Part shown: positions 19,225 to 64,000 of the stretch, piece after piece
How the letters are laid out: every line of letters starts with the position of its first letter
Numbering within the stretch: position 1 is the stretch's first letter
Assembly (NCBI RefSeq): GCF_030684315.1
Contig: NC_081356.1
Coordinates: 101,227,242-101,291,241, forward strand
DNA from: Stegostoma tigrinum
Lineage: Eukaryota
Direction: 5' to 3'
Length of the DNA: 64,000 bases
Notes under the pieces: model-generated
The model's input: the letters and a program-made list of their open reading frames with translations, nothing else
Told to the model about the DNA's origin: nothing
The model's database searches: none
Program-made: the position numbers and the translations under genes

Positions 19225-20168
19225 TAAAACAGGACAGTACAGGCCCTTCGGCCCTCGATGTTGCGTCGATCTGTGAAACCAATCTGAAGCCCATCTAACC
19301 TACACTGTTCCATTATTATCCATGTTTATCAGATGACCATTTAAATACCTTAAACTTGGCAAGTCTGCTACTGTTGCAGGCAGGGCATTCCACGCCCTTA
19401 CTACTCTCTGAGTAAAGAACCTACCTCTGACATCTGTCCTATATCTATCACCCCTCAATTTAAAGCTATGTCCCCTCGTGCTAGCCAACGCCATCTGAGG
19501 AAAAAAGCTCTCACTGTCCACCCTATCTAATCCTCTGATCATCTTGTATGTCTCTGTTAGGTCACCTTAACCTTCTTCTCTCTCACGAAAACAGCCTCAC
19601 ATCCCTCAGCCTTTCCTCACAAGATCTTCCCTCCATACCAGGCAACATCCTGGTCAATCTCCTCTGCACCCTTTCCAATGCTTCCACATCCTTCCTATAA
19701 TGCGGCAACCAGAACTGCACGCAATACTTCTCGTGTGGCCGCACCAGAGTTTTGTACAGTTGCAACATGACCTCGTGGCTCCACAACTCAATCCCTCTAC
19801 CAATAAAACCTAACACACTGTACGCCTCCTTAACAACCCTATCAACCTGGGTGGCAACTTTCAGGGATCTATGGACGTGGACACTGAATCTCACTGCTCA
19901 TCCACACTACCAAGAATCTTACCATTGTACTCTTTGTACTCTTTGAATACTTTGTATTCCTGTTACTCCTTCCAAAGTGAATCACCTCACACTTTTCCGC
20001 ATTAAACTCCATTTGCCACCTCTCAGCCCAGCTCTGCAGCTTATCAATGTCCCTCTGTAACCTGCAATATCCTTCTGCACTATCCACAACTCCACTGACT
20101 TTAGTGTCATCTGCAAATTTACCAAAACATTCTTTATTGCCCTCATCCAGGTCATTTATAAAAATGTT
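19225..20168 (-). mobile_element. CR1 LINE 3' fragment
   Basis: FINDLD..KFADDTK, LYKTLVRPH and TRGHSFKL..FFTQRVV, with a 3' stem-loop like the 62.8 kb copy. Confidence 0.92.
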
Positions 20169-21663
20169 CATTTTAAGTACTGTGCTTTTTTTTTGATTTG
20201 CTGGTTTAGGTTAAAATATGGTCTAAATTTGAATATTTACACTGTTTGAATTTTAAGCACCAGCTGCTGTGTTGATTTGCTAAACTGGATCAGAAAGTCT
20301 TGATTTTAGAGTTCCTTTATTGTGGTAAATCGAGATTTGACCTGTAGAATGAGTCCTGTTTGGTTTCAGTTTATACATTAACTTATTTTATTTTTCCATG
20401 TAATTAGCATGAGATGGTAGTGTTTGAGATCAATTGCACATAACTTTTCAATAACAGCATGTGTTAATTTAGTAGAAATGCCTTAAGACACAGAAAGAGA
20501 CTGTTCAGCGAATCAAGTCTGCTTGGCCGTTCAGTGGTATCATGGCTGACTGCAGCACTCTGTAAAGAATTTCACAGATTCACTAGTCTTAAGGAAAATA
20601 AATTATCCTTTGTTTCTGTTTTAAATAGATGATCACTTACTCTGCAATTTATGCCCTCTACTCCTAGACTATCCCATAAGGGGAAGCAAATTCTCCGCAT
20701 CTACACTATAAATTCCCCTAAGAGCCTTAACTATTTCAACAAGGTCAGCTTTCATTCTTATAAATGGCAATTTCTGCAGACCTAAATCTACTTTAACCTT
20801 TCCTGACAAGAAAATTCTAACCAGGATCACTGGTTACTTCACAGTATTGTAAATAGAAATAGAAACTGAACCAAAGAAACAAATACCAAGAGGGGTTGTG
20901 AAAGTTTGAACAACGTTTTTTGTTTTTTATTTAAGAAGCCAGGTGAGCTAGAAGCCCGGTGAGAAAATGGGAATGGACAAGACGTTAGAGTTGAAGGATC
21001 ATTATCAAGACTGTGTTAGTTTTTTTTTAAATTGTGGATTGAAATGGGAAAATGACTGATTTGAAAAGCGAAGATTGTGGAAAGTATAACAGTACTTTTT
21101 AAAACCTGTTAGCTAACACACATTTGTAGGATGTAAGTGCTGGTTGTTTGATGGGCTGGAGACAGCAGTTACGTAAGGAGATAATTACATAAGGAATGAG
21201 ATTTGTCCAACTACATGTTCGTGATGGTTTGTGAAGTGGTGCTCAGTTGTTCAAAACTAAGGCCTTCTGCATGCCCACAACAGTGTTGTTGCCAGGTAGC
21301 TGAACAGCTTGTGGTTATGAATGTTTTTGCAAAAGCCATCAGACCTCAAAGAAGCAAAAAGTTTGCCATTCTCTCCTGTAAAAATGACATGTTTTTTTTC
21401 TTTTATTCGCTCATTGGATGTGGGTGTCACTGGGGAACCACAAAAGAATCACTTGACCTGCAATGTTAACTCTGATTTCTCTCCACAGATGCTGCCAGAC
21501 CTGCTGAGCTTTACCAGCAAATTCTGTTTTCATTAACTTTGTTGCAATTTATTCCAAATATACTTCTGTTCAGAAATCCAGCTTTTGAAATAGTTATCTC
21601 TCAAATTTGTCTATTTATTTATACTTGGCCAGTTTTCTTTTAATGAACAATTTTATTTTTAAG

Positions 21664-26453: not shown

Positions 26454-28329
26454 GTAAGCAGTTTAATATTAATAGAATAGCAAAAATTTGTTTTCAGTAA
26501 CGTATAATTTGATGTAAAGGTAGTACCAACAAGGTATAACAGTTGTTGCATGTGTACTTTTGGGGAAAGTTATCTAATTATTATGTTAATTTTCATTTTA
26601 TAACTTCCAAGGCAAAATTCTCAGAAGCAAGAGGATGCATGTGTATTTTTGATTCTTGCTTTTGTTGGCTTGGAGACTAAGTGTGGAGATGGGCCTGAGT
26701 ACAGAAGGCATTTCCACTCAGGCAGGTTGGGGTTTCTCCCAGGATTATGTTCTTGGCACAGCACGTTTTCATGCCTGGGTGAAACACCACATTTTATGGG
26801 CAAGAAATTTTGCCCCCTTTCTGGGACCTTCCAAGCACCATATTTGAATGTACCCTTACTCCAACTCTCTCATTATTTGGTCCATCCTTTGTACATGCTA
26901 ATATACTACTTCCAACACCCATGAGCTTGTTAAGTAGCCTAATATGTGGTACCTTATCAGTGCATTCTAGAAATACAAATATATTGTACCCGCTGCTTTA
27001 TCTACCCTACTTGTTACTTCAAAGAATTCTAATAAATTTGACAGGCATGATTTCCAGTTTGTGACTGTGCTAACTATTCTTGATCATATGATACCTTTTC
27101 AAATGTTTTAGTGAAGAAATGTTAAGCTGAAATCCTATAGTTAGCTGTTTTGTGTTTCCTTTCCATTTTAAATAAAGTGTTACATTTGCGGTTTTCCAAT
27201 CCTTGGTGACTTTTCCAGAATCTAAGGATTATTGAAATATTACTATCAGTGCTTTCGCTATCTCTGTAGCTAGTTTGTTTCATGTACGAGGAGGAATCCC
27301 ATTAGACCCAGTGGTTTTATCAGTTCTTGACCTCATTGTGGCTATCCTAATCTACATGAAGATTAAAGTTACCCATGATTAATCTATGTCATTTTTATAT
27401 GCCCCCATTACCTTCTGATTTATTCCCAGTCCTACTAAATAGCTACTGACCGGGGGCCTCTTGACTACAGCTGCCAGTGTCGTCTTTCCCTTTTTCCACT
27501 TCTTACATCCACCTATTTGGTACTGCATCTTCTGACACCAAATCATTTCTTGCTGCAGTATTTATTTCTTTCCGTACACTCAAATGTTAACTCCCTCCTC
27601 CATCCTTTCCTTCCTGCCTGTCTTTTCAAAAGTCACTTACCCTTGAATATTTATTCATAGTTTTGATCTCCTACTTACCATGTTCTTGTTGTTTTTGTTT
27701 TGGCTATAAGATTATATCCATTTACCTGTAATTATGATCATTCGTTTATTTTGTTTCAAATACTTTGTGCATTCAGAGCCATTAATTTTGACTTTTTAAG
27801 CATGTTTCCCTCTAACCCCATTTACTGCTGTTTTACAGTTTGCACACTCTGTCCCTTCCTGATCCACTCAGGGTTTCATTATCCAAATACCTGCCCTGTA
27901 GTGCTGCTAAGTCCTCTAGCTTCAAAAGCCGGTACTTCTAAACTCCCCAAATTCCACCCCCAACCCCGTTTGACTAATTATTCAATTTGCTAGGACACTG
28001 GTCCCAGCATGGTTCAAGTGAAGACAATCCTATTGGACCAGCTCCCTTCTACCCCAGTACTGGTGCCAGTATCCATCAACTGAAAGACTTTTCTCCCCCA
28101 CTACAATCTCTTTTTAGCCATGTGTTTAGCAACTAGACTTCATTTACCCCTGCATGTGACTTCGGTAGTAATTCTGAGATTATTACCTTTTGGAAGCTCT
28201 GGCTCCTGATTTTAGCTCCTAACTATTGAAAATATTTCAGCAGAACCTCATTTCTAGTCCTACCAATGTTGAGGTACCAACTATGTGATGACAATTGGAT
28301 CCCTCTCCTTCTCTCTTTTCAAGGGTATA

Positions 28330-45104: not shown

Positions 45105-45780
45105 TACATGAGGATCAATGGTCGGCACAACATTGTGGGCTGAAGGGCCTGTTCTGTGCTGTACTGTTCTATGTTCTATGTTCTATGTTCTATAACTTTT
45201 ATCTCCTAATTTTGAAATCAATTTCTTTTTAATGTCCTAGATTTTCACATTTACTTAATTAGCCTGAAGCTTATCTACAGTAACTGAATATCAAATACTG
45301 TGATTTGCTAAAAGAAAATATCAAACTACTAATCCTGTTCACCTGATTATTTGACAATCTAAGTTATACTGTCCTACAGTAGAGGCCCTTTGGCCCATCA
45401 AGTCTGCACCAATTAAATAAAACCCATCACCTTTCTACACAAATCCCACGTCCAGCACTTGGCCCACAGCCATCAATGTATGACAAAGTACTGATCCATG
45501 TATATTTTAAAGGCTGAGAGGTTTCCCATCTCTACTGCCCTCCCGGATTTCCACCAACATCAGGGTGAATAGAAATTTTCTCAAATCCTCTCTCAATCTC
45601 CTGCCTTTCACCTTAAAATCATGCCCCTCATTACTGACCCTTCAACTAAGGAGAATAGCTGCTTCCTGTCCACTTTTTCCATGACCTTCACAATCTTAAT
45701 ACACCTCAAACAGGTCCCCCTTCTCCCTCCTCTGCTCTAAAGAAAACAACCCGAGTCTATCCAGCCTCTCTTCAATAGCG
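45105..45780. mobile_element. CR1 3'-end remnants: + strand tail with (GTTCTAT)n at 45105-45192 and a minus-strand fragment at about 45370-45780
   Basis: GGGCTGAAGGGCCTG stem-loop plus tandem tail; degenerate ORF2 end on the minus strand. Confidence 0.7.
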
Positions 45781-50412: not shown

Positions 50413-50524
50413 AGAACACAGAACACAGAACACAGAACACAGAACACAGAACACAGAACACAGAACACAGAACACAGAACACAGAACACAGAACACAGAA
50501 CACAGAACACAGAACACAGAACAC
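50413..50524 (-). repeat. (GTTCTGT)16 tandem tail of a CR1
   Basis: 16 perfect AGAACAC units on the + strand abutting the CR1 3' UTR. Confidence 0.95.
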
Positions 50525-52428
50525 GCCCTTCAGCCCACAATGTTGTGCCGACCATTGATCCTCATGTATGCACCCTCAAATTTCTGTCACCATATACATG
50601 TCCAGCAGTCTCTTAAATGACCCCAATGACCTTGCTTCCACAACTGCTGCTGGCAACACATTCCATGCTCTCACAACTCTCTGCGTAAAGAACTTGCCTC
50701 TGACATCCCCTCTATACTTTCCACCAACCAGCTTAAAACTATGACCCCTCGTGCTAGCCATTTCTGCCCTGGGAAATAGTCTCTGGCTATCAACTCTATC
50801 TATGCCTCTCATTATCTTGTATACCTCAATTAGGTCCCCTCTCCTCCTCCTTTTCTCCAATGAAAAGAGACCGAGCTCAGTCAACCTCTCTTCATAAGAT
50901 AAGCCCTCCAGTCCAGGCAGCATCCTGGTAAACCTCCTCTGAACCCTCTCCAAAGCATCCACATCTTTCCTATAATAGGGCGCCCAGAACTGGACGCAGT
51001 ATTCCAAGTGCAGTCTAACCAAAGTTTTATAGAGCTGCAACAAGATCTCACGACTCTTAAACTCAATCCCCCTGTTAATGAAAGCCAAAACACCATATGC
51101 TTTCTTAACAACCCTGTCCACTTGGGTGGCCATTTTAAGGGATCTATGTATCTGCACACCAAGATCCCTCTGTTTCTCCACGCTGCCAAGAATCCTATCC
51201 TTAATCCTGTACTCAGCTTTCAAATTCGACCTTCCAAAATGCATCACATCGCATTTATCCAGGTTGAACTCCATCTGCCACCTCTCAGCCCATCTCTGCA
51301 TCCTGTCAATGTCCCGCTGCAGCCTACAACAGCCCTCTACACTGTCAACGACACCTCCGACCTTTGTGTCGTCTGCAAACTTGCTGACCCATCCTTCAAT
51401 TCCCTCGTCCAAGTCATTAATAAAAATTACAAACAGTAGAGGCCCAAGGACAGAGCCCTGTGGAACTCCACTCACCACTGACTTCCAGGCAGAATATTTT
51501 CCTTCTACTACCACTCGCTGTCTTCTGTTGGCCAGCCAATTCTGTATCCAAGCAGCTAAGTTCCCCTGTATCCCATTCCTCCTGACCTTCTGAATGAGCC
51601 TACCATGGGGAACCTTATCAAATGCCTTACTGAAGTCCATATACACCACATCCACAGCTCGACCCTCATCAACTTTTCTAGTCACATCCTCAAAAAACTC
51701 GATAAGGTTTGTAAGGCATGACCTACCCCTCACAAAGCCGTGTTGACTGTATTTGATCAAGCCATGCTCTTCCAGATGGTCATAAATCTTATCCCTCAGA
51801 ATCCTTTCTAACACCTTGCAGACGACAGACGTGAGACTTACCGGTCTATAATTGCCGGGGATTTCCCTATTTCCTTTCTTGAAGAGAGGAATTACATTTG
51901 CCTCTCTCCAGTCCTCAGGTACGACTCCAGTGGAGAGCGAGGATGCAAAGATCTTCGCAAGTGGCGAAGCAATTGCATTTCTCGCTTCCCAAAGCAGCCG
52001 AGGACAAATCTGATCCGGGCCTGGCGACTTGTCAATCTTAATGTTTGACAAAATTTTCAGCACATCAGCTTCCTCTATCTCTATCCATTCCAGCATGCAC
52101 ACCTGCTCTTCAAAGGTTTCATTCACTACAAAGTTGGTTTCTTTCGTAAAGACAGAAGCAAAAAACTCATTTAGGGCTTCCCCTACCTCCTCAGGCTCCA
52201 CACACAAGTTCCCTATGCTATCCCTGATCGGCCCTACTCTTTCTTTGACCATTCTCTTATTCCTCACGTAAGTGTAAAATGCCTTTGTGTTTTCCCGGAT
52301 TCCTTCTGCCAAGCCTTTCTCGTGCCCCCTCCTGGCTCTCCTCAGACCATTTTTGAGCTCCTTCCTTGCCTGCATGTAATCCTCTCTAGCTGAACTTGAC
52401 CCTAGCTTCCTCCACCTTATGTAAGCTA
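50413..52428 (-). mobile_element. Young 5'-truncated CR1 LINE with an uninterrupted RT (ORF 50576-52375, 599 aa)
   Basis: GNYRPVSLTS, QHGF, YMDFSKAFDKVPH, GVPQGSVLGP and FADD with no stops; no endonuclease domain. Confidence 0.96.
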
Positions 52429-54309
52429 CTGTGGTTTGTTTCAGTAACTTTCAGATATCATTATCTGGCTATTATTTCTGCCACTGTGTAGCAGTATATT
52501 GATGACATTAACTTTCTTTTTCTTCAAGAGAAATCTTGAAAAACTTCAATAGGCACTGAAGCTGTAACTAGCTCCAGTATCCACTCAAACGTGTCATTCT
52601 TTTGAAATATCACAGTCTTCATCTTTGTCATAGCATCTACTGACAAACTAATCAATTAATTCTTGTGGCTGTTGCGTATATGACATAAACTCTAACTCTA
52701 AAACATGAATTCTAATGTTTGGTTTCTCACAAAGCTAATTTTCCAATATTTCCAATAGCATAGCAGGATCATTCTGGTCCTCAAGAGGCCTGAATTGTCA
52801 ACACTGTGCAAACTCCATTCCATTGGCCACCTTTATTTTCAGAGCTTGATTATCTGGTTGCAAACAGTCACTGGACTTGAAACTCTGTTTCTCTCTCCTG
52901 AGATGCTGGCAGAACTGCTGAGCTTCTCCAGGATTTTCAGTTGTTGTTTTCAGATTTCGAGCATCCACTTACTATTTTGGTTTCTTTTTACCCTGCCCAG
53001 TGATATTTCTAGCTGCAGCTTCAACATTTTTGTTCCAAATCAAACATTGTAGTTGTAGTTACAGTTATTTCCTTCTTTCTGAGGTCCCTGTGAAGATGTG
53101 TCTTTTGCATAGGTTTCTCGTTTTCTGCCTTTCTCTTTGATTAAAATCACCATGTGCTGTCTTGTGTTTTCTTGTTATTAGTGCCGTAGATTGAATTGCT
53201 TTTATTTGCCATCTATTTCAGTTTTTTGAACATGGTTGCAAAATGAATAATTTTATCGTTATTGATAAATACTAAATTATAGGACTTGAGAAAAAGAGAT
53301 AAAATGTAGAATATAACATAAAAATACATACTATTGCAATGGTCAAATAGTTATAAAATACAGTTCAATGTAGAGAAATGTAAAGCAGTACTTTTTACAA
53401 TTACTGCACTTTTAATGAAGAAACAGAGATCAACAGACATTAATCTTTAAAGATGAGAATGCAGATAAAAAAGGTCACAAATGCAATGGCTTCGAGTTCC
53501 CTCGCTCTGTAACCTCCAGCCTAAGAACCCTCCAAGAAATGTGCATTCTTCAAATGTTAATCCTGGTAGCCATGTCTTCAGCTTTCGAGGCTATCAGCTC
53601 TGGAATTTCCTCCCCGGATCTCTTTCACACTCCTCCATTGATACAAACTTTGAATCAATCATGATCGTGGAGAAGCAGGCTCACAAGCCATATGTTCTAC
53701 TCCTACTCCCATTTCCCTTGTTCTTACGTTACAACCTATATCTTTCACCAAGCTTCAGGTAATCTGATCTTGTACATCATTATAAAGCTCTATATTTTTG
53801 TCAGATAATGTTCCTGTGAAGCTTCTTGTGAGGTTTCACTTAGGGACAGATGCTCTATAAATGTAAGTTGGTCTTAATGTAGGTAATGAATTCCAAAAAT
53901 GAGTGGTGATAAATTTCAATAGTCATAGAATGATACAGGGATGTCTCCCCGACAGTATTCTTTAAGTAACAAATGAGGACCATAGTCATGCATTTAAACA
54001 AATGAGGGAATGATACAGTTGTTTGGCTGGCTAAGATTTTGGTCACCTTGGATGATCCAAGCTATGAAAAAGAATGGCAATCAGCCATTAGAGGCTAGAC
54101 TAAATGTGTCACAAACTGATCGTAAAGGAGAATGAAAGGTCATATTAAAGTCACATGTGAAGAGTTGTTGTCAGCAAATTCCAGGAAGGTTTAGGTAGTG
54201 TCAGGTTTTGTGAACACTTGTATTTTAAGCTGTTTATTTTGTTTCAAGATGCAATGAAGCTGGGACTTTAAAGGATAATTAATTAGCATTTCAAACTGGA
54301 TACAAGGAC

Positions 54310-55465
54310 TCTGTGATTCACTTAAAATGCATAATGGTAAATAAATCCCCAGGACCTAATGAAATGTATTCCAGGTCTTTGTGGGAGGCTATGGAGGAAA
54401 TTGTGGGGCCCCTAGCAGAGATATTTATATCATCAGCAGCCACTGTAGAAGATAGAGGGTGTGGGAAAGGGTTGTTTTTCAGACAACGTGCCTGTGACCA
54501 ACAGTATGTCACAGGGATTGGTGCTGGGTCCCCTGTTGTTTGTCATTTATATAAATGATTTGAACGAGAATTTCAGAGGAATGGTTAGTTAGTTCACCAA
54601 TGACACCAAGATTGGTGGTATACTGGACAGTGAAGCAAGTTATCTAGGAATGCAGCGAGATCCTGAACAGCTAGGCCAGTGGGCTGAGGAACAGCAGGTG
54701 GAGTTTAATTTAGATAAATTCAAGGTGTTGCATTTTCATAAGGCAAACCAAGGCAAGACTTACACAGTCAATGTTAGGGCCTTGAGGAGTGTTTAGAACA
54801 GAGTGATCTAGGGGTACAGGTCCATAGGTCCTTGAAAATGGAGTGACAGGTCAACAGGGCGGTGAAGAATACTTTCAGCATGCTTGCTTTCATTGGTCAG
54901 AGTATTGAGTATAGTAGTTGGGATGTCTTGTTGCAGCAGTTGCAGGCCACATTTGGAGTACTGCATGCAGTTTTGCTACCCTACAAAAGAAAGGATATTA
55001 TTAAACTAGAAAGAGTACAGTCAAGATTTACTAGGTGGCTACCGAGACTGGCAAGTTTGAGTTATAAGGGAAGGTTGGATAGGCTGGGACTTTTTTCCCC
55101 TGGAGCATAGGAGACTGAGGGGTGACCTCATAGACATTTATAAAATCACGAGAGGCATAGGTAAGGTAGATGGCCGACAGCTTTTCTCCATGGTAGGGGA
55201 GTCTAAAACTTGAGGATATAGTGTCCAGAGGGGCAATCTTCTTCACACAGAGGGTGGTGAGTGTCTGGAACAGGCTGTTAGGTGCAGTGGTGGAGGTGAG
55301 TACAATTTCGTCATTTAAGAAGCATTTAAACAGGTATGTGGACGGGATGGGCATGGAGGCATATGGACTAAATGCAGGCAAATGGCACTATTTTAAATTC
55401 TGAAAACTGGGTGGCATGGGTAAATTGGGCCGAAGGGCCTGTTTCCATGCTGTAGAAGTCTGTGA
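54310..55465 (+). mobile_element. Degenerate CR1 3' fragment with an internal deletion
   Basis: KSPGPNEMYSRSLWEA, LERVQSRFTR and FFTQRVVSVWN; GGGCCGAAGGGCCTG stem-loop. Confidence 0.85.
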
Positions 55466-58400: not shown

Positions 58401-58824
58401 CATGATCTTCCATGGTGATTTTCTTGAGCACAAGATCACAGCAGAAGAACATAATTATTGTGTTATAGAAGAACTACTTGTATCTTTAAAAAAGTCTCCA
58501 TATTGCTGCTGCAATATTTATAGCATTGTAATGTGGGTTCTGAGGTCTTCATTCACGCTCATACTAAATTTATTGTTATATTAAACAATGATTTTAAATA
58601 GATCACAAACACCCAGCTGTATGGGCTCCACCTTTTCAGCACAACATTAACACGACAATGGGGATTAGTGATATTGCATCTTATCTCAGATGATCAACTA
58701 CATATTTATTTAACTCAATCTGTACACCTATCTCCTTTACTCTGGGTTTGTAAGTATTTTGCAATTCGCATTTTTATTTTTCCTCAGTTCTAACGTAAGA
58801 TTACCGACCTGAAGCATTAACGCT

Positions 58825-58930
58825 GAGCAGGAGCCGACACGGGACTGGTGAGTGAGTGAGGTAATATATTTGTGTGGTTGCGTTACCCGAAACACTACCC
58901 GGGTAGTGTCTCCCACCCATCCTCCTCCTC
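58825..58930 (+). ncRNA. Candidate full-size type I hammerhead-like RNA in the CR1 5' UTR (core variant CUGGUGA)
   Basis: Stem I GGGA/TCCC plus GAGCAGGAG/CTCCTCCTC; stem II GGTAAT/GTTACC; GAAA; stem III ACACTAC-CCGG-GTAGTGT; GTC triplet ending at 58910. Confidence 0.5.
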
Positions 58931-59020
58931 TAACCAAAAAAAAGGTTCTGTATGCCTGATTGGTAAGGTAACAAGTTTATTTTTTATTCTTTATTTTTTA
59001 AGTCTTGGGAATTTAGAATA

Positions 59021-59956
59021 ATGGGAACGGAGGTCAGGGCAGTTGAATGTTCCTCCTGCAGAATGTGGGAGGTAAGGGTCGCCACTAGTGTCCCTGCTGA
59101 CTACATCTGCGGGAAGCGCACCCAACTCCAGCTCCTCGAAAACCGCGTTAGGGAACTGGAGCTGGATGAACTTGGGATCATTCGGGAGGCAGAGGGGGTT
59201 ATTGAGAGGAGTTACAGGGAGTTAGTCACTCCTGAAGTACAGGAAAAAGGCAGATGGGTTACGGTCAGGGGACGGAAAGGGAACTGGCAGGTAGTGCAGG
59301 GATCCCCTGTGGCCATTCCCCTCAACAATAAGTATACCGTTTTGGATACTGTTGGGGGGGACGACTTATCAGGGGAAAGCAGTGGGGCACAGGTCTCTGG
59401 CACAGATTCTGTCCCTGCTGCTCAGAAGGGAAGGGGGAAGAGGAGCAGAGCATTAGTCATTGGGGACTCCATAGTTATGGGGACAGATAGGAGGTTCTGT
59501 GGGGACGAGAGAGACTCACGGTTGGTGTGTTGCCTCCCATGTGCCAGGGTGCGTGATGTCTCTGATCGTGTTTTTGGGATCCTTAAGGGGGAGGGGGAAC
59601 AGCCCCAAGTCGTGGTCCACATTGGCACCAACGACATAGGTAGGAAGAGAGACGGGGATTTAAGGCAGAAATTCAGGGAGCTAGGATGGAAGCTGAGAGC
59701 TAGGACGAACAGAGTTGTTGTCTCTGGTTTGTTGCCCGTGCCACATGCTAGTGAGGCGAGGAATAGGGAGAGAGAGGAGTTGAACACATGGCTACAGGGA
59801 TGGTGCAGGAGGGAGGGTTTTGGATTCTTGGATAATTGGGGCTCTTTCTGGGGTAGGTGGGACCTCTACAAGCAAGATGGTCTTCACCTGAACCAGAGGG
59901 GTACCGATATCCTTGGGAGGAAATTTGCTTAGGCTATTCGGGTGGGTTTAAACTAA
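59021..59956 (+). pseudogene. CR1 ORF1 (CxxC finger, coiled coil, GDSL/SGNH esterase); premature TAG at 59930, probable ancestral stop TAA at 59954-59956
   Basis: CSSCRMW, VIGDSIV, HIGTND and DGLHLN motifs. Confidence 0.9.
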
Positions 59957-62820
59957 TTCAGCAGGGGGATGGGCACCAAAATTGTAGTTCGACTATAGAA
60001 AAGGTTGAGAGTAGGGTGGTCCGAAATAAAGTTTCAGGGAAGCAAGATGGCACCAGCAAGCAAGACGTTGGTTTGAAGTGTGTCTACTTCAATGCCAGGA
60101 GCGTCCGGAATAAGGTGGGTGAACTTGCAGCATGGGCTGATACCTGGAACTTCGATGTTGTGGCCATTTCGGAGACATGGATAGAGCAGCAACAGGAATG
60201 GTTGTTGCAGGTTCCGGGATTTAGATGTTTCAGGAAGAACAGAGAAGATGGTAAAAGGGGCGGCGGTGTGGCATTGTTGGTCAAGGACAGTATTACAGTT
60301 GCAGAAAGGATGTTTGGGGACTCAACAGCTGAGGTTAGAAACAGGAAATTAGAGGTCACCCTGTTGGGAGTTTTCTTTAGGCCTCTGAATAGCTCCAGAG
60401 ATGTAGAGGAAAGGATAGCAAAGATGATTCTCGATAGGAGTGAGAGAGACAGGGTAGTTGTCTTGGGGGACTTCAACTTTCCAAATATTGACTGGGAACA
60501 CTATAGTTCGAGTACTATAGATGGGTCAGTTTTTGTCCAATGTGTGCAGGAGGGCTTCCTGACATAGTATGTAGATAGGCCAACAAGGGGCAAAGCCACA
60601 TTAGATTTGGTACTGGGTAATGAGCCTGGCCAGGTGTTAGATTTGGAAGTAAGTGAGCACTTTGGTGATAGCGATCACAATTCTGTTATGTTTACTTTAG
60701 TGATGGAAAGAGATAGTTGTATACCACTGGGCAAGAGTTATAGCTGGGGGAAAGGCAATTACGATGAGATGAGGCAAGATTTAGGGAGCATAGGATGGGG
60801 AAGGAAACTGCAGGGGATGGGCACATAGAAATGTGGAGCTTATTCAAGGAAAAGCTCCTGTGTGTCCTAGATAAATATGTACCTGTCAGGCAGGGAGGAA
60901 GCTGTAGAGTGCGGGAGCCGTGGTTTACGCAGGAGGTGGAATCTCTGGTCAAGAGGAAGAAGAAGGCTTATGTTAAGATGAGATGTGAAGGCTCAGTTAG
61001 GGCATTTGAGGGCTACGAGGTAGCCAGGAAAGACCTAAAGAGAGAGCTCAGAAGAGCCAGGAGGAGACATGAGAAGTTGCTAGCAGATAGGATCAGGGTA
61101 AACCCTAAGGCTTTCTACAGGTATTTAAGTAATAAAAGAATGACGAAAGTAAGATTAGGCCCAATCAAGGATAGTAGTGGTAAGTTGTGTGTGGAGTCAG
61201 ATGAGTTAGGGGAAGCGCTAAATGAATACTTTTCAACAGTATTCACTCTAGAAAACGACCATGTTGTCAAGGAGAATACTGAGATACAGGCTACTGGATT
61301 AGGTGAGATTGAGGTTCAGAAGGAAGAGGTATTAGCAATCCTTCAGAGGGTGAAGATAGATAAGTCCCCGGGCCGGATGGGATTTATCCTCGGATCCTCT
61401 GGGAAGCCAGGGAGGAGATTGCCGAGCCTTTGGCATTGATCTTTAACTTGTCTGTCTACAGGAATAGTGCCAGATGACTGGAGGATAGCAAATGTGGTTC
61501 CCCTGTTCAAGAAGGGGAGTAGAGACAACCCTGGTAATTATAGACCAGTGAGCCTTACCTCAGTTGTTGGTAAAGTGTTGGAAAAGGTTATAAGGGATAG
61601 GATTTATAATCATCTAGAAAAGAATAAATTGATTAGGGATAGTCAGCACGGTTTTGTGAAGGGAAGGTCGTGCCTCACAAACATTATTGAGTTCTTTGAG
61701 AAGGTGACCAAACAGGTAGATGAGAGTAAACCAGTTGATGTGGTGTATATGGATTTCAGCAAGGCATTCGATAAGGTTCCCCACAGTCAGCTATTGTACA
61801 AAATGCAGAGGAATCGAATTGTGGGAGATATAGCAGTTTGGGTCGGAAATTGGCTTGCTGAAAGAAGACAGAGGGTGGTAGTTCATGGGAAATGTTCATC
61901 CTGGAGACCAGTTACTAGTGGTGTACCGCAAGGGTCGGTGTTGGGTCCACTGCTGTTTGTCATTTTTATAAATGACCTGGATGAGGGCGTAGAAGTATGG
62001 GTTAGTAAATTTGCAGACGACACTAAGGTCGGCGGAGTTGTGGATCGTGACGAAGGATGCTGTAGGTTGCAGAGAGACATAGATAAGCTGCGGAGCTGGA
62101 CTGAGAGGTGGCAAATGGAGTTTAATGCAGACAAGTCTGAGGTGATGCACTTTGGTCGGAGTAACCAGAAGGCAAAGTCCAGGGCTAATGGTGAGATTCT
62201 TAGTAGTGTAGATGAGCAGAGAGATCTCGGTGTCCATGTACACACAGATCCTTGAAAGTTGCCACCCAGGTTGACAGGGCTGTTAAGAAGGCATACAGTG
62301 TTTTAGCTTTTATTAATAGGGGGATCGAGTTCTGGAACCAAGAGGTTATGGTAAAGCTGTACAAAACTCTGGTGCGGCTGCACTTGGAGTATTGTGTACA
62401 GTTCTGGTCACCGCATTATAAGCAGGATGTGGAAGCTTTGGAAAGGGTGCAGAGGAGATTTACTAGGATGCTGCATGGTATGGAGGGAAGGTCTTACGAG
62501 GAAAGGCTGAGGGACTTGAGGCTGTTTTCATTAGAGAAGAAGGTTGAGAGGTGACTTAATTGAAACATATAAAATAATCAGAGGGTTAGATAGGGTGAAT
62601 AGGGAGAGCCTTTTTCCTAGGATGGTGACGGCGAGCACGAGGGAGCATAGCTTTAAATTGGGTGGTGAAAAGATATAGACAGATGTCAGGGGTAGTTTCT
62701 TTACTCAGAGTAGTAAGGGAATGGAATGCTTTGCCTGCAATGGTAGTAGATTCGCCAACTTTAGGTACATTTAAGTCGCCATTGGATAAGCATATGGACG
62801 TATATGGAATAGTGTAGGTT
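59947..62820 (+). pseudogene. CR1 ORF2 (AP endonuclease + RT) with stops and frameshifts
   Basis: YFNARS, ISETW, GGGVAL, GDFNFP, SDHN, YMDFSKAFD and FADD across ORF pieces. Confidence 0.92.
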
Positions 62821-62982
62821 AGATGGGCTTCAGATCGGTATGACAGGTTGGCACAACATCGAGGGCCGAAGGGCCTGTACTGTGCTGTTATGTTCTATGT
62901 TCTAATCGTGTCTCTCTCTCCCTCCCTCCACAGAAACTGCCAGATCTGCATTTTCTCTTGGACTCCACGATTACAGTTTCAT

Positions 62983-63078: not shown

Positions 63079-63199
63079 TTTTTACTTCTGTGCATTTTGG
63101 GGACCTATCTAATGGAGTAGCGATATACTGTAATTTCACACCTGTTTGAATTTGACGGTCTTTCAAAGCGAAATCCAGTAACCATTTTCAGGAGATGGG

Positions 63200-63470
63200 C
63201 TCGTCGAGTCGGAGTGGGGAACTCTGCGCGGGACTGGGCCACCGATATGAGCATACTCGCAGGTGCGGCGGGTCGGTGCGCTTGCGCTCAGCGGGAGGAC
63301 GCCCACCTGCGGACACCTGGAGCAAGGCCGACGTGACGTCACTGGGATGGGTCATGTGACCGTGTCCCTGGCATTTCCGCCATTTCTCCCGGGGACGGTG
63401 GAGAACTTTCTGCTCTGATCCGGAGGCGCCAGGTGGGGAATGCTTTCTGTTTTTACCCCTCCCCCTATAA
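63200..63470 (+). promoter_or_regulatory. CpG-island promoter and probable non-coding first exon of an unidentified gene
   Basis: Sharp rise in CpG; NRF1-like TGCGCTTGCGC 63277-63287, CRE GTGACGTCAC 63333-63342, E-box GTCATGTGAC 63351-63360, ETS/YY1 ATTTCCGCCATTT 63373-63385; possible donor AG|GTGGGG at 63433. Strand is inferred. Confidence 0.75.
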
Positions 63471-64000
63471 CTTTACCCCACGTCAACTGCTGAGGGCGAG
63501 GACGGTATTTTGTTTCTTTCACTGTGGCCAGAGCCCACAGGGAGTGGAGGGTTTTGATCTGGATGGCCCGGTTTGGGATGGGGATGGAGAGTGTTGCTGC
63601 TACTTCCCGAGAACTGAGCCACGCCTTTATCTGGGGCTGGGTTTCCCCACGTCCGGCGATGAATTCGATTGTAATTTTTTTTAATCATTTCCATAACTTC
63701 GGATGAAAGAAAATGCAACATGGTTTCAAATCTCCGCTGGGAAGCTTTTTCATCGCCGGTTCGGTAACGGTGATTATTTCTCCTTACGGTGCTTGTAATG
63801 AGAGAGGCATTGCTTCTTGTAATGCTTTGCGCTCAATGTTTTGATTTTGAAGTTTTATATTGTGCATTGTCTCGTTGATCGCTTTGAATTCTGTAACTAA
63901 TCTTGGAACCTAAAAACGAATTATTTTTCATTTGTGAGAAACTTATAAAAAAGGTCTCTCTTTTCTGATACACCAACAACTGAAATCTCTCGATCCTTGC

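Follow-up and report, generated by a model that had tools for sequence, protein, structure and literature searches.

Canonical CR1 elements of vertebrates carry, between their two open reading frames (ORFs), a conserved TTTAAAC heptamer that stands in the phase of a -1 slippery site and is followed at once by the ORF1 stop codon. We describe this junction from a copy of the CR1 long interspersed nuclear element (LINE) in the shark Stegostoma tigrinum, within a 64,000-nt stretch of contig NC_081356.1 (NCBI RefSeq assembly GCF_030684315.1, positions 101,227,242 to 101,291,241 of the forward strand), the whole of which we call the window. ORF1 of this copy encodes an esterase, and ORF2 an APE endonuclease and a reverse transcriptase (RT). 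We consider it likely, from comparison of sequences, that vertebrate canonical CR1s express ORF2 as an esterase-endonuclease-RT fusion through conserved programmed -1 frameshifting. A preliminary description of the window had proposed such a fusion for this family, and the comparative evidence supports it.

The ORF1/ORF2 junction of the window copy

The ORF1 frame at 59945-59956 reads GGT TTA AAC TAA. The open stretch of the endonuclease frame, which lies at -1 relative to ORF1, spans 59857-60567. On its two strands the window has 20 copies of TTTAAAC, of which only the one at the junction adjoins a stop codon. The features of the junction, read from the sequence, are as follows.

59947-59953, + strand: slippery heptamer T_TTA_AAC in X_XXY_YYZ phase, conserved in related loci, proteins and published consensuses
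59954-59956, + strand: ORF1 stop TAA, immediately following the heptamer; relatives have TAG or TGA here
59947-60072, + strand: -1 frame linker beginning FKLIQQGDG, 42 codons with no stop and no ATG, up to LKCVYFN
59964-59973, + strand: G-run GGGGG-AT-GGG, 10 nt past the heptamer, a spacing shared by relatives; candidate stimulator or protein-binding site
60310-60312, + strand: first ATG of the ORF2 frame, 79 codons inside the endonuclease, past FNARS and ISETW
59930-59932, + strand: premature in-frame TAG of ORF1, eight codons short of its true end, private to the window copy

The heptamer in slippery phase right before the ORF1 stop, the -1 register of ORF2 and a G-rich tract shortly downstream had all been noted in the preliminary description, and each is borne out; the tract, CAGGGGGATGGG, begins at 59962 and its GGGGG at 59964. 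The further statement that ORF2 lacks an ATG holds for the window copy, where the first one is that at 60310, but not for CR1s generally, as Met codons in the linkers of relatives show. The TAG at 59930-59932 had been overlooked. We call it private to the window copy because, in X1, the closest of three contig runs, A accounts for 63096 of 63601 depth units at the position of T59930. A ribosome on this copy would therefore end eight codons early. The window copy is dead, and is therefore informative for its family alone.

Conservation of the heptamer in loci and published consensuses

Related loci were fetched by two esterase peptide patterns, not by the heptamer, and the best 80 of 126 were kept. 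Fifteen had an LN-ending protein as best match at at least 45% identity, and eight of these stop short of the junction. TTTAAAC is present in all seven that reach it (L003, L004, L006, L007, L008, L015 and L060), with the stop decayed in two. Two further loci show TTTAAAC with TGA (L017) and G_TTA_AAC TAG (L002). Every junction DNA seen reads TTA AAC, and no other Leu or Asn codon was found there. The -1 frame is likewise kept open: no stop intervenes between the heptamer and the endonuclease motif in any of the five junctions where that motif could be parsed, while the decayed loci L004 and L060 have one stop each in the linker region. In L002, L004 and L008 the open ORF2 frame starts 13-16 nt upstream of the ORF1 stop, which leaves only just enough room for the heptamer.

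Published consensuses gave a second view of the junction. For the consensuses in the PMC13343379 supplement, the search covered the first 400 letters of each, and rows were read by eye; the set retrieved with TTTAAACTA was picked by motif and has no denominator. Fifteen of the 22 matches examined (of 23) are CR1-labelled junctions with heptamer and stop, from rows named for alligator, crocodile, bowfin, frog, chimaera, two rays, coelacanth and two sharks. The others comprise a row labelled Crack that resembles a junction, the 5' untranslated regions (UTRs) of two dogfish consensuses and four unrelated places. One lizard consensus row carries TTTAAAC TGA. Six synonymous variants of the heptamer gave 46 supplement matches, and none of the 23 examined, again by eye, lay at a CR1 junction. 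No GGGAAAC or AAAAAAC junction was found in vertebrate consensuses within the searchable letters. The heptamer, its phase and the adjacent stop thus recur from sharks to amniotes, the conservation that the preliminary description had put forward as a test.

Contigs of the three runs, from three coded organisms, were aligned to 59840-60140; a fourth run, X22, gave no match there. Depth, which here sums unlike contigs, has a local peak at 59950-59960; it exceeds the trough at 59917-59927 by factors of 3.6, 9 and 14 in the three runs. We read this as stronger conservation, across subfamilies, of the junction than of the final codons of ORF1. Among the 40 variants listed of 85, none falls within 59944-59958. 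For X1, 23 of the 32 variant places are listed, and every place of the types G>A, G>T, T>C and T>G is among them; by count, variants at 5% or more therefore include neither T>C nor T>G in the heptamer, nor any substitution in the G-run, nor a change of ATT to ATG at the stop. The nine other X1 places (three A>G, three C>T, three T>A) could include letters of the heptamer. A60041T, which creates an in-frame ATG at 60040, stands at 7% in X1.

Terminal residues of ORF1 proteins

A TTTAAAC junction in this phase ends ORF1 with Leu-Asn (LN). The last esterase block is covered by 67 of 91 ORF1 homologues, and LN is the ending in 55 of those 67. Searching 50%-identity representatives with a profile returned 10,194 matches, of which the best 150 were examined; these added 139 new ids, and LN ends 54 of the 108 that reach the last esterase block. 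In the pooled set, 109 of 175 ORF1 relatives end Leu-Asn-stop. The residue before this Leu lacks a T-ending codon (E, K, Q, M or W) in 1 of the 109, as against 50 of 109 one place further up, and Gln never precedes LN (0/109).

Other endings appear to follow the same rule with other heptamers. GN ends ten rows, nine of them after Gln, and is compatible with G_GGA_AAC; KN ends four rows, after Ser, Gly or Ala, and is compatible with A_AAA_AAC, both judged from protein only. In a quick tree the QGN, SGN, SKN/AKN and FLN endings all fall inside one 25-row clade. One clade among proteins P0154-P0243 ends in QGN, SGN, SKN, AKN or FLN, or in FF, GF or LN followed by one more residue, which looks as though the slippery site had changed several times. 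Over the whole set, terminal tripeptides compatible with a strict heptamer number 124 of 175, compared with 2 to 55 at offsets 1-24 (36 at offset 1); for the 66 rows without LN, 16 are compatible at the terminus and 2-7 at other offsets. Five proteins (P0034, P0075, P0080, P0138 and P0194) continue from the esterase directly into FKL, the -1 reading of TTT AAA CT. Together these patterns look like signs of selection on nucleotides at the junction, not on the peptide.

A G-run at fixed distance

Conservation of the downstream G-tract had also been suggested as a test, and GGGGG lies exactly 10 nt past the heptamer in seven of eight junctions; in L002 the distance is 7 nt. The Gly codon of the run is always GGG, and its flanking G is supplied by neighbouring codons whatever residue they encode, a constancy that points to selection on RNA. 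Arteriviruses use protein-stimulated frameshifting, with a short C-rich motif about 10 nt past the shift site. The likeness is that of a short motif rich in a single base, at fixed distance, in place of a structure; the CR1 motif differs in being G-rich, not C-rich, and its partner protein is hypothetical.

A second recoding signature in distant relatives

Both the ORF1 end and the endonuclease start are visible in 36 of the 80 loci. Four of these have the in-phase heptamer, 20 have ORF2 in the ORF1 frame behind one stop, two are in frame with no stop and ten are broken. The same-frame loci (L005, L018, L022, L023, L027, L030, L033, L037, L039-L041, L048, L050, L055, L057, L059, L061, L064, L067 and L075) form about ten sequence groups, mostly from one clade of distant esterase-ORF1 LINEs. 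Their stops are TGA-C in 17, TGA-T in two and TAA-C in one; UGA-C is the usual leaky stop context. The stopless loci are L019 and L053, and L053 has Arg at the place of the stop. This looks like conserved stop readthrough in the TGA-C clade. The presence of two unrelated recoding signatures at one junction suggests that fusion of ORF1 to ORF2 may itself be selected.

Proposed mechanism and alternatives

In the mechanism that we infer, ribosomes would decode UUA AAC, in the P and A sites, as the final two ORF1 codons. The majority would end translation at the stop that follows, yielding the esterase ORF1 protein (ORF1p) by itself; a minority would slip one base back onto UUU AAA and read on through the variable linker into the endonuclease and RT. 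The outcome would be a low ratio of ORF2p to ORF1p, with the enzyme tethered to ORF1p as Gag-Pol is to Gag. The pause would probably be due jointly to the adjacent stop and to the G-run 10 nt downstream, the latter acting as a protein-binding site or a non-canonical structure, rather than from a classical pseudoknot.

A number of results count against this mechanism or soften its evidence. Structural searches were negative: no stable downstream fold was found in the eight junctions (z from -1.5 to +1.0), nor, among nested folds and pairwise duplexes, a stem-loop or pseudoknot 5-9 nt downstream; the junction alignment gave no consensus pairs; no long-range partner is common to five elements; a G-quadruplex is predicted in two of the eight junctions (L003 and L007) and absent in the window; and Rfam returned nothing relevant, with one weak mir-378 match below threshold. 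The protein counts come from related rows that are not independent, and the profile behind the larger search was built from 27 chosen LN-ending rows plus the window protein and may favour LN rows. GN and KN endings are known from protein alone. A protein motif can imitate the signal, as 55 of 175 rows do at the DGLHLN offset, and about 50 of 175 relatives, including the ZfL2-like clade, have endings unable to encode a strict heptamer. The remaining difficulties are start codons in linkers and a copy of the motif elsewhere, which we take up with the explanations they favour.

The best-surviving of these is that a separate ORF2p is made by termination and reinitiation, as in SART1 and LINE-1, at the AUG of a TAATG, at a near-cognate AUU, GUG or GUU, or at a linker AUG, with the motif aiding termination or ribosome retention. 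The codon overlapping the stop is ATT at 59956-59958 in the window copy. By eye, a TAATG stop-start in the ORF2 frame is present in two of the 15 CR1-labelled rows, the shark consensuses ScyCan_CR1-1a and SquAca_CR1-17a, and in none of the nine junctions of the fetched loci and window. In-frame Met codons, one to three, occur in the linkers of three of five readable junctions, at unrelated places, and four ORF2 proteins (P0092, P0093, P0095 and P0096) begin with Met, a sign biased by gene callers. Of two observations that the preliminary description took to speak against frameshifting, an in-frame ATG before the APE domain is therefore seen in part, whereas non-conservation of the heptamer is not. 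Both UAAUG coupling in SART1 and AUG-independent initiation of LINE-1 ORF2 are published. Given the linker Met codons and TAATG, reinitiation may run beside or in place of frameshifting. It would not, however, lead one to expect a T ahead of TTA or the changes to QGN and SKN endings. No conserved AUG overlaps or shortly follows the ORF1 stop; the overlapping codon varies freely (ATT, GAT, GGT, GTA, AAG), ATT to ATG stays below 5% in X1, and linker Met positions differ from element to element. We regard reinitiation as the main route as unlikely.

A further possibility, which we judge improbable, is that heptamer, stop and G-run form an RNA or DNA element with another job, such as binding of a particle protein or a splice or subgenomic-RNA signal, and that ORF2 is reached otherwise. 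Such an element would account for an island conserved at the nucleotide level without a classical stimulator, and the 11-mer GGTTTAAACTA does recur upstream of ORF1 in the 5' UTRs of two dogfish consensuses, SquAca_CR1-18 and SquAca_CR1-3. A binding site, however, needs neither codon phase nor in-phase change to other slippery heptamers. For a splice signal one could point to the donor-like GGTGAGT at 58847 in the 5' UTR; yet the junction lacks a preceding pyrimidine tract, the stretch from 58780 to the donor-like site contains no ATG, and no intron-like joint recurs among the 15 listed of 101 joints in the three contig runs, which are not on record as RNA.

Very improbable, in our view, is that the protein itself requires Leu-Asn at the C-terminus of ORF1p, or Phe-Lys-Leu at the start of ORF2p, with the heptamer as a by-product. 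LN does stand at a nearly fixed distance after the last esterase helix in vertebrate rows, and a protein motif can score as heptamer-compatible. But LN also ends tails of other lengths, and the profile match of the solved ZfL2-1 esterase stops at position 306 of 310, short of LN, which is therefore not needed for the fold. The invariable TTA AAC of the junction DNA seen and the absence of synonymous variants among the matches examined largely refute a requirement for the peptide. Transcriptional slippage was set aside, as there is no long homopolymer. A separate candidate, the best window duplex with the junction, lies 646 nt upstream in ORF1; L003 has a counterpart at -665 and the other three elements have none, and we treat it as chance.

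Beyond programmed frameshifting in CR1, we offer a broader proposal with rather less than even confidence: that LINEs with an esterase ORF1 share, as a group, a Gag-Pol strategy like that of retroviruses. Vertebrate CR1s would have kept frameshifting at U_UUA_AAC since the origin of jawed vertebrates, driven by the stop and by a G-run read by a host or element protein, with no pseudoknot; sister clades would arrive at the fusion through other slippery heptamers or UGA-C readthrough. On this view the working enzyme in one of the commonest transposon families of vertebrates would be a fusion of esterase, endonuclease and RT, and ORF2 starts as now annotated would be misplaced.

Relation to known systems

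The kind of recoding is known; its CR1 setting, without a classical stimulator, we did not find reported. Frameshifting at U_UUA_AAC occurs in coronaviruses (IBV) and in gag-pol of retroviruses and long terminal repeat (LTR) retrotransposons (PMC5009743), and U_UUA_AAC, G_GGA_AAC and A_AAA_AAC are among the four heptamers named there as most shifty (Atkins 2016). Like these sites, the CR1 junction has an in-phase X_XXY_YYZ at the end of the upstream ORF, a polymerase ORF at -1 and the same set of heptamers. Unlike them, CR1 is a non-LTR element with a fixed-distance G-run and no predicted stem-loop or pseudoknot 5-9 nt downstream.

Non-LTR precedents exist. A figure legend in PMC5911963 says that a -1 frameshift is necessary for ORF2 translation in Dictyostelium TRE5-A and TRE3-A, which differ from CR1 in belonging to the L1 clade and in their unrelated ORF1. 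Penelope-like elements, again by a figure legend (PMC8557442), have ORF1 set off by a frameshift and pseudoknot; they share with CR1 a non-LTR-type retroelement and a frameshift drawn before the RT, but have another RT class and a pseudoknot. LINE-1 and SART1 translate ORF2 by reinitiation, according to papers that cite the original work. They resemble CR1 in having a bicistronic LINE RNA and needing low-level ORF2; they differ in making a separate ORF2p from a defined AUG position, and in the citing text no slippery heptamer is described for them.

The full-text literature yielded no report of programmed frameshifting in CR1 and no account of how CR1 makes ORF2p. The first CR1 descriptions (Haas 1997, 2001; Kajikawa 1997) and Kapitonov and Jurka 2003 lay outside that search, and there is a considerable chance that they already remark on the overlap or the heptamer. 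CR1 frameshifting is not mentioned in the accessible text of PMC11835228, PMC3708506, PMC4255032, PMC2734521, PMC1965478 or PMC5408684. The first 300,000 of 449,034 characters of PMC5009743 name CR1 0 times, their non-LTR cases being HeT-A, TART and LINE-1. PMC3905857 with its PDF supplement contains Neptune1_Ren but, in its searchable text, not the word 'frameshift'. A term search of the main text of PMC4120745 gave no match; its supplements, outside the search, may bear on ORF1 ends. The main text of PMC13343379 mentions no frameshift, overlap, start codon or word in translat-.

The CR1 family is abundant in sharks, crocodiles and birds: CR1-group elements make up 22-34% of shark and ray genomes (PMC13343379), and CR1 is the commonest repeat in chicken. 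A conserved frameshift, if true, would be a seven-letter and directly testable answer to how CR1 expresses ORF2p. It predicts a fusion protein, unlike the separate ORF2p of LINE-1, and the esterase would gain a second role within the enzyme. Scoring of intact CR1 copies and annotation of ORF2 starts would change. The recoding field would gain a chromosomal -1 frameshift of great age that operates without classical RNA structure.

The element and its surroundings

The copy as a whole has the following parts.

58794-62905, + strand: decayed near-full-length canonical CR1 LINE of cartilaginous-fish type, 5' end uncertain
59021-59956, + strand: ORF1, with Cys-rich N-terminus, SGNH/GDSL esterase and C-terminus Gly-Leu-Asn-stop (Pfam, profile, alignment)
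60073-62817, + strand: ORF2 body, APE endonuclease then RT (Pfam PF03372, Exo_endo_phos; PF00078, RVT_1)
62889-62904, + strand: CR1-type 3' tail, two copies of TATGTTCT in short tandem, no poly(A) (read from the sequence)

The esterase of ORF1 matches Pfam PF13472 (E 1e-13), and the ORF1 profile matches the ZfL2-1 esterase structure 4c1b at E 1e-38. Identity is 76% to a Mustelus protein and 71% to a Stegostoma protein, and the nearest named ORF1 proteins are from sharks and rays. A coiled-coil stretch is presumably also present in ORF1, as we expect from the CR1 layout. No ORF1 relatives were found in viral and prokaryote contigs; two shark-type CR1 proteins filed under Pseudomonas aeruginosa and Carnobacterium maltaromaticum (P0006 and P0094) probably represent host contamination. 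ORF2 is disrupted by stops at 60565-60567 and 61437-61439 and by frame changes near 60810-60825, near 62250 and beyond. Its endonuclease matches that of LINE-1 weakly, with SET of ISETW aligned to QET, the Glu of which we take to be a metal-binding residue. GTTCTAA (7 nt), at 58787 and 62899, is a weak candidate for a target duplication.

By its domains, its tail, the named shark homologues and its likeness to published consensuses, the element fits membership in canonical vertebrate CR1 as treated in section 15 of PMC13343379. It shares with that group the esterase ORF1, the APE-RT ORF2 and the short tandem 3' tail, and consensuses of that source carry the motif.

In the window copy the 5' UTR (58847-59020) has two donor-like sites, GGTGAGT at 58847 and GGTAAG at 58962, and, right ahead of the ORF1 ATG, a run rich in T that closes with AG. 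Similar sites (GGTGAGT/GGTAAGT) are present in published CR1 consensuses from sharks, and a 5' UTR intron is possible.

No second full-length CR1 copy was found in the window. Other, 5'-truncated CR1 ORF2 fragments lie at 50591-52447 (- strand), 19228-20177 (- strand) and 54304-55370 (+ strand), with short ORF2 pieces near 27000, 39050 and 45150-45780; the truncated fragments belong to other subfamilies, and none reaches the junction. An (AGAACAC)n tandem array at 50414-50525, at the 3' end of the minus-strand CR1, is apparently an expanded tail. Past the element, the region 63170-63480 is GC-rich and CpG-containing, includes TGACGTCA and is free of CAATATG; it has a promoter-like look and may be a gene promoter or first exon.

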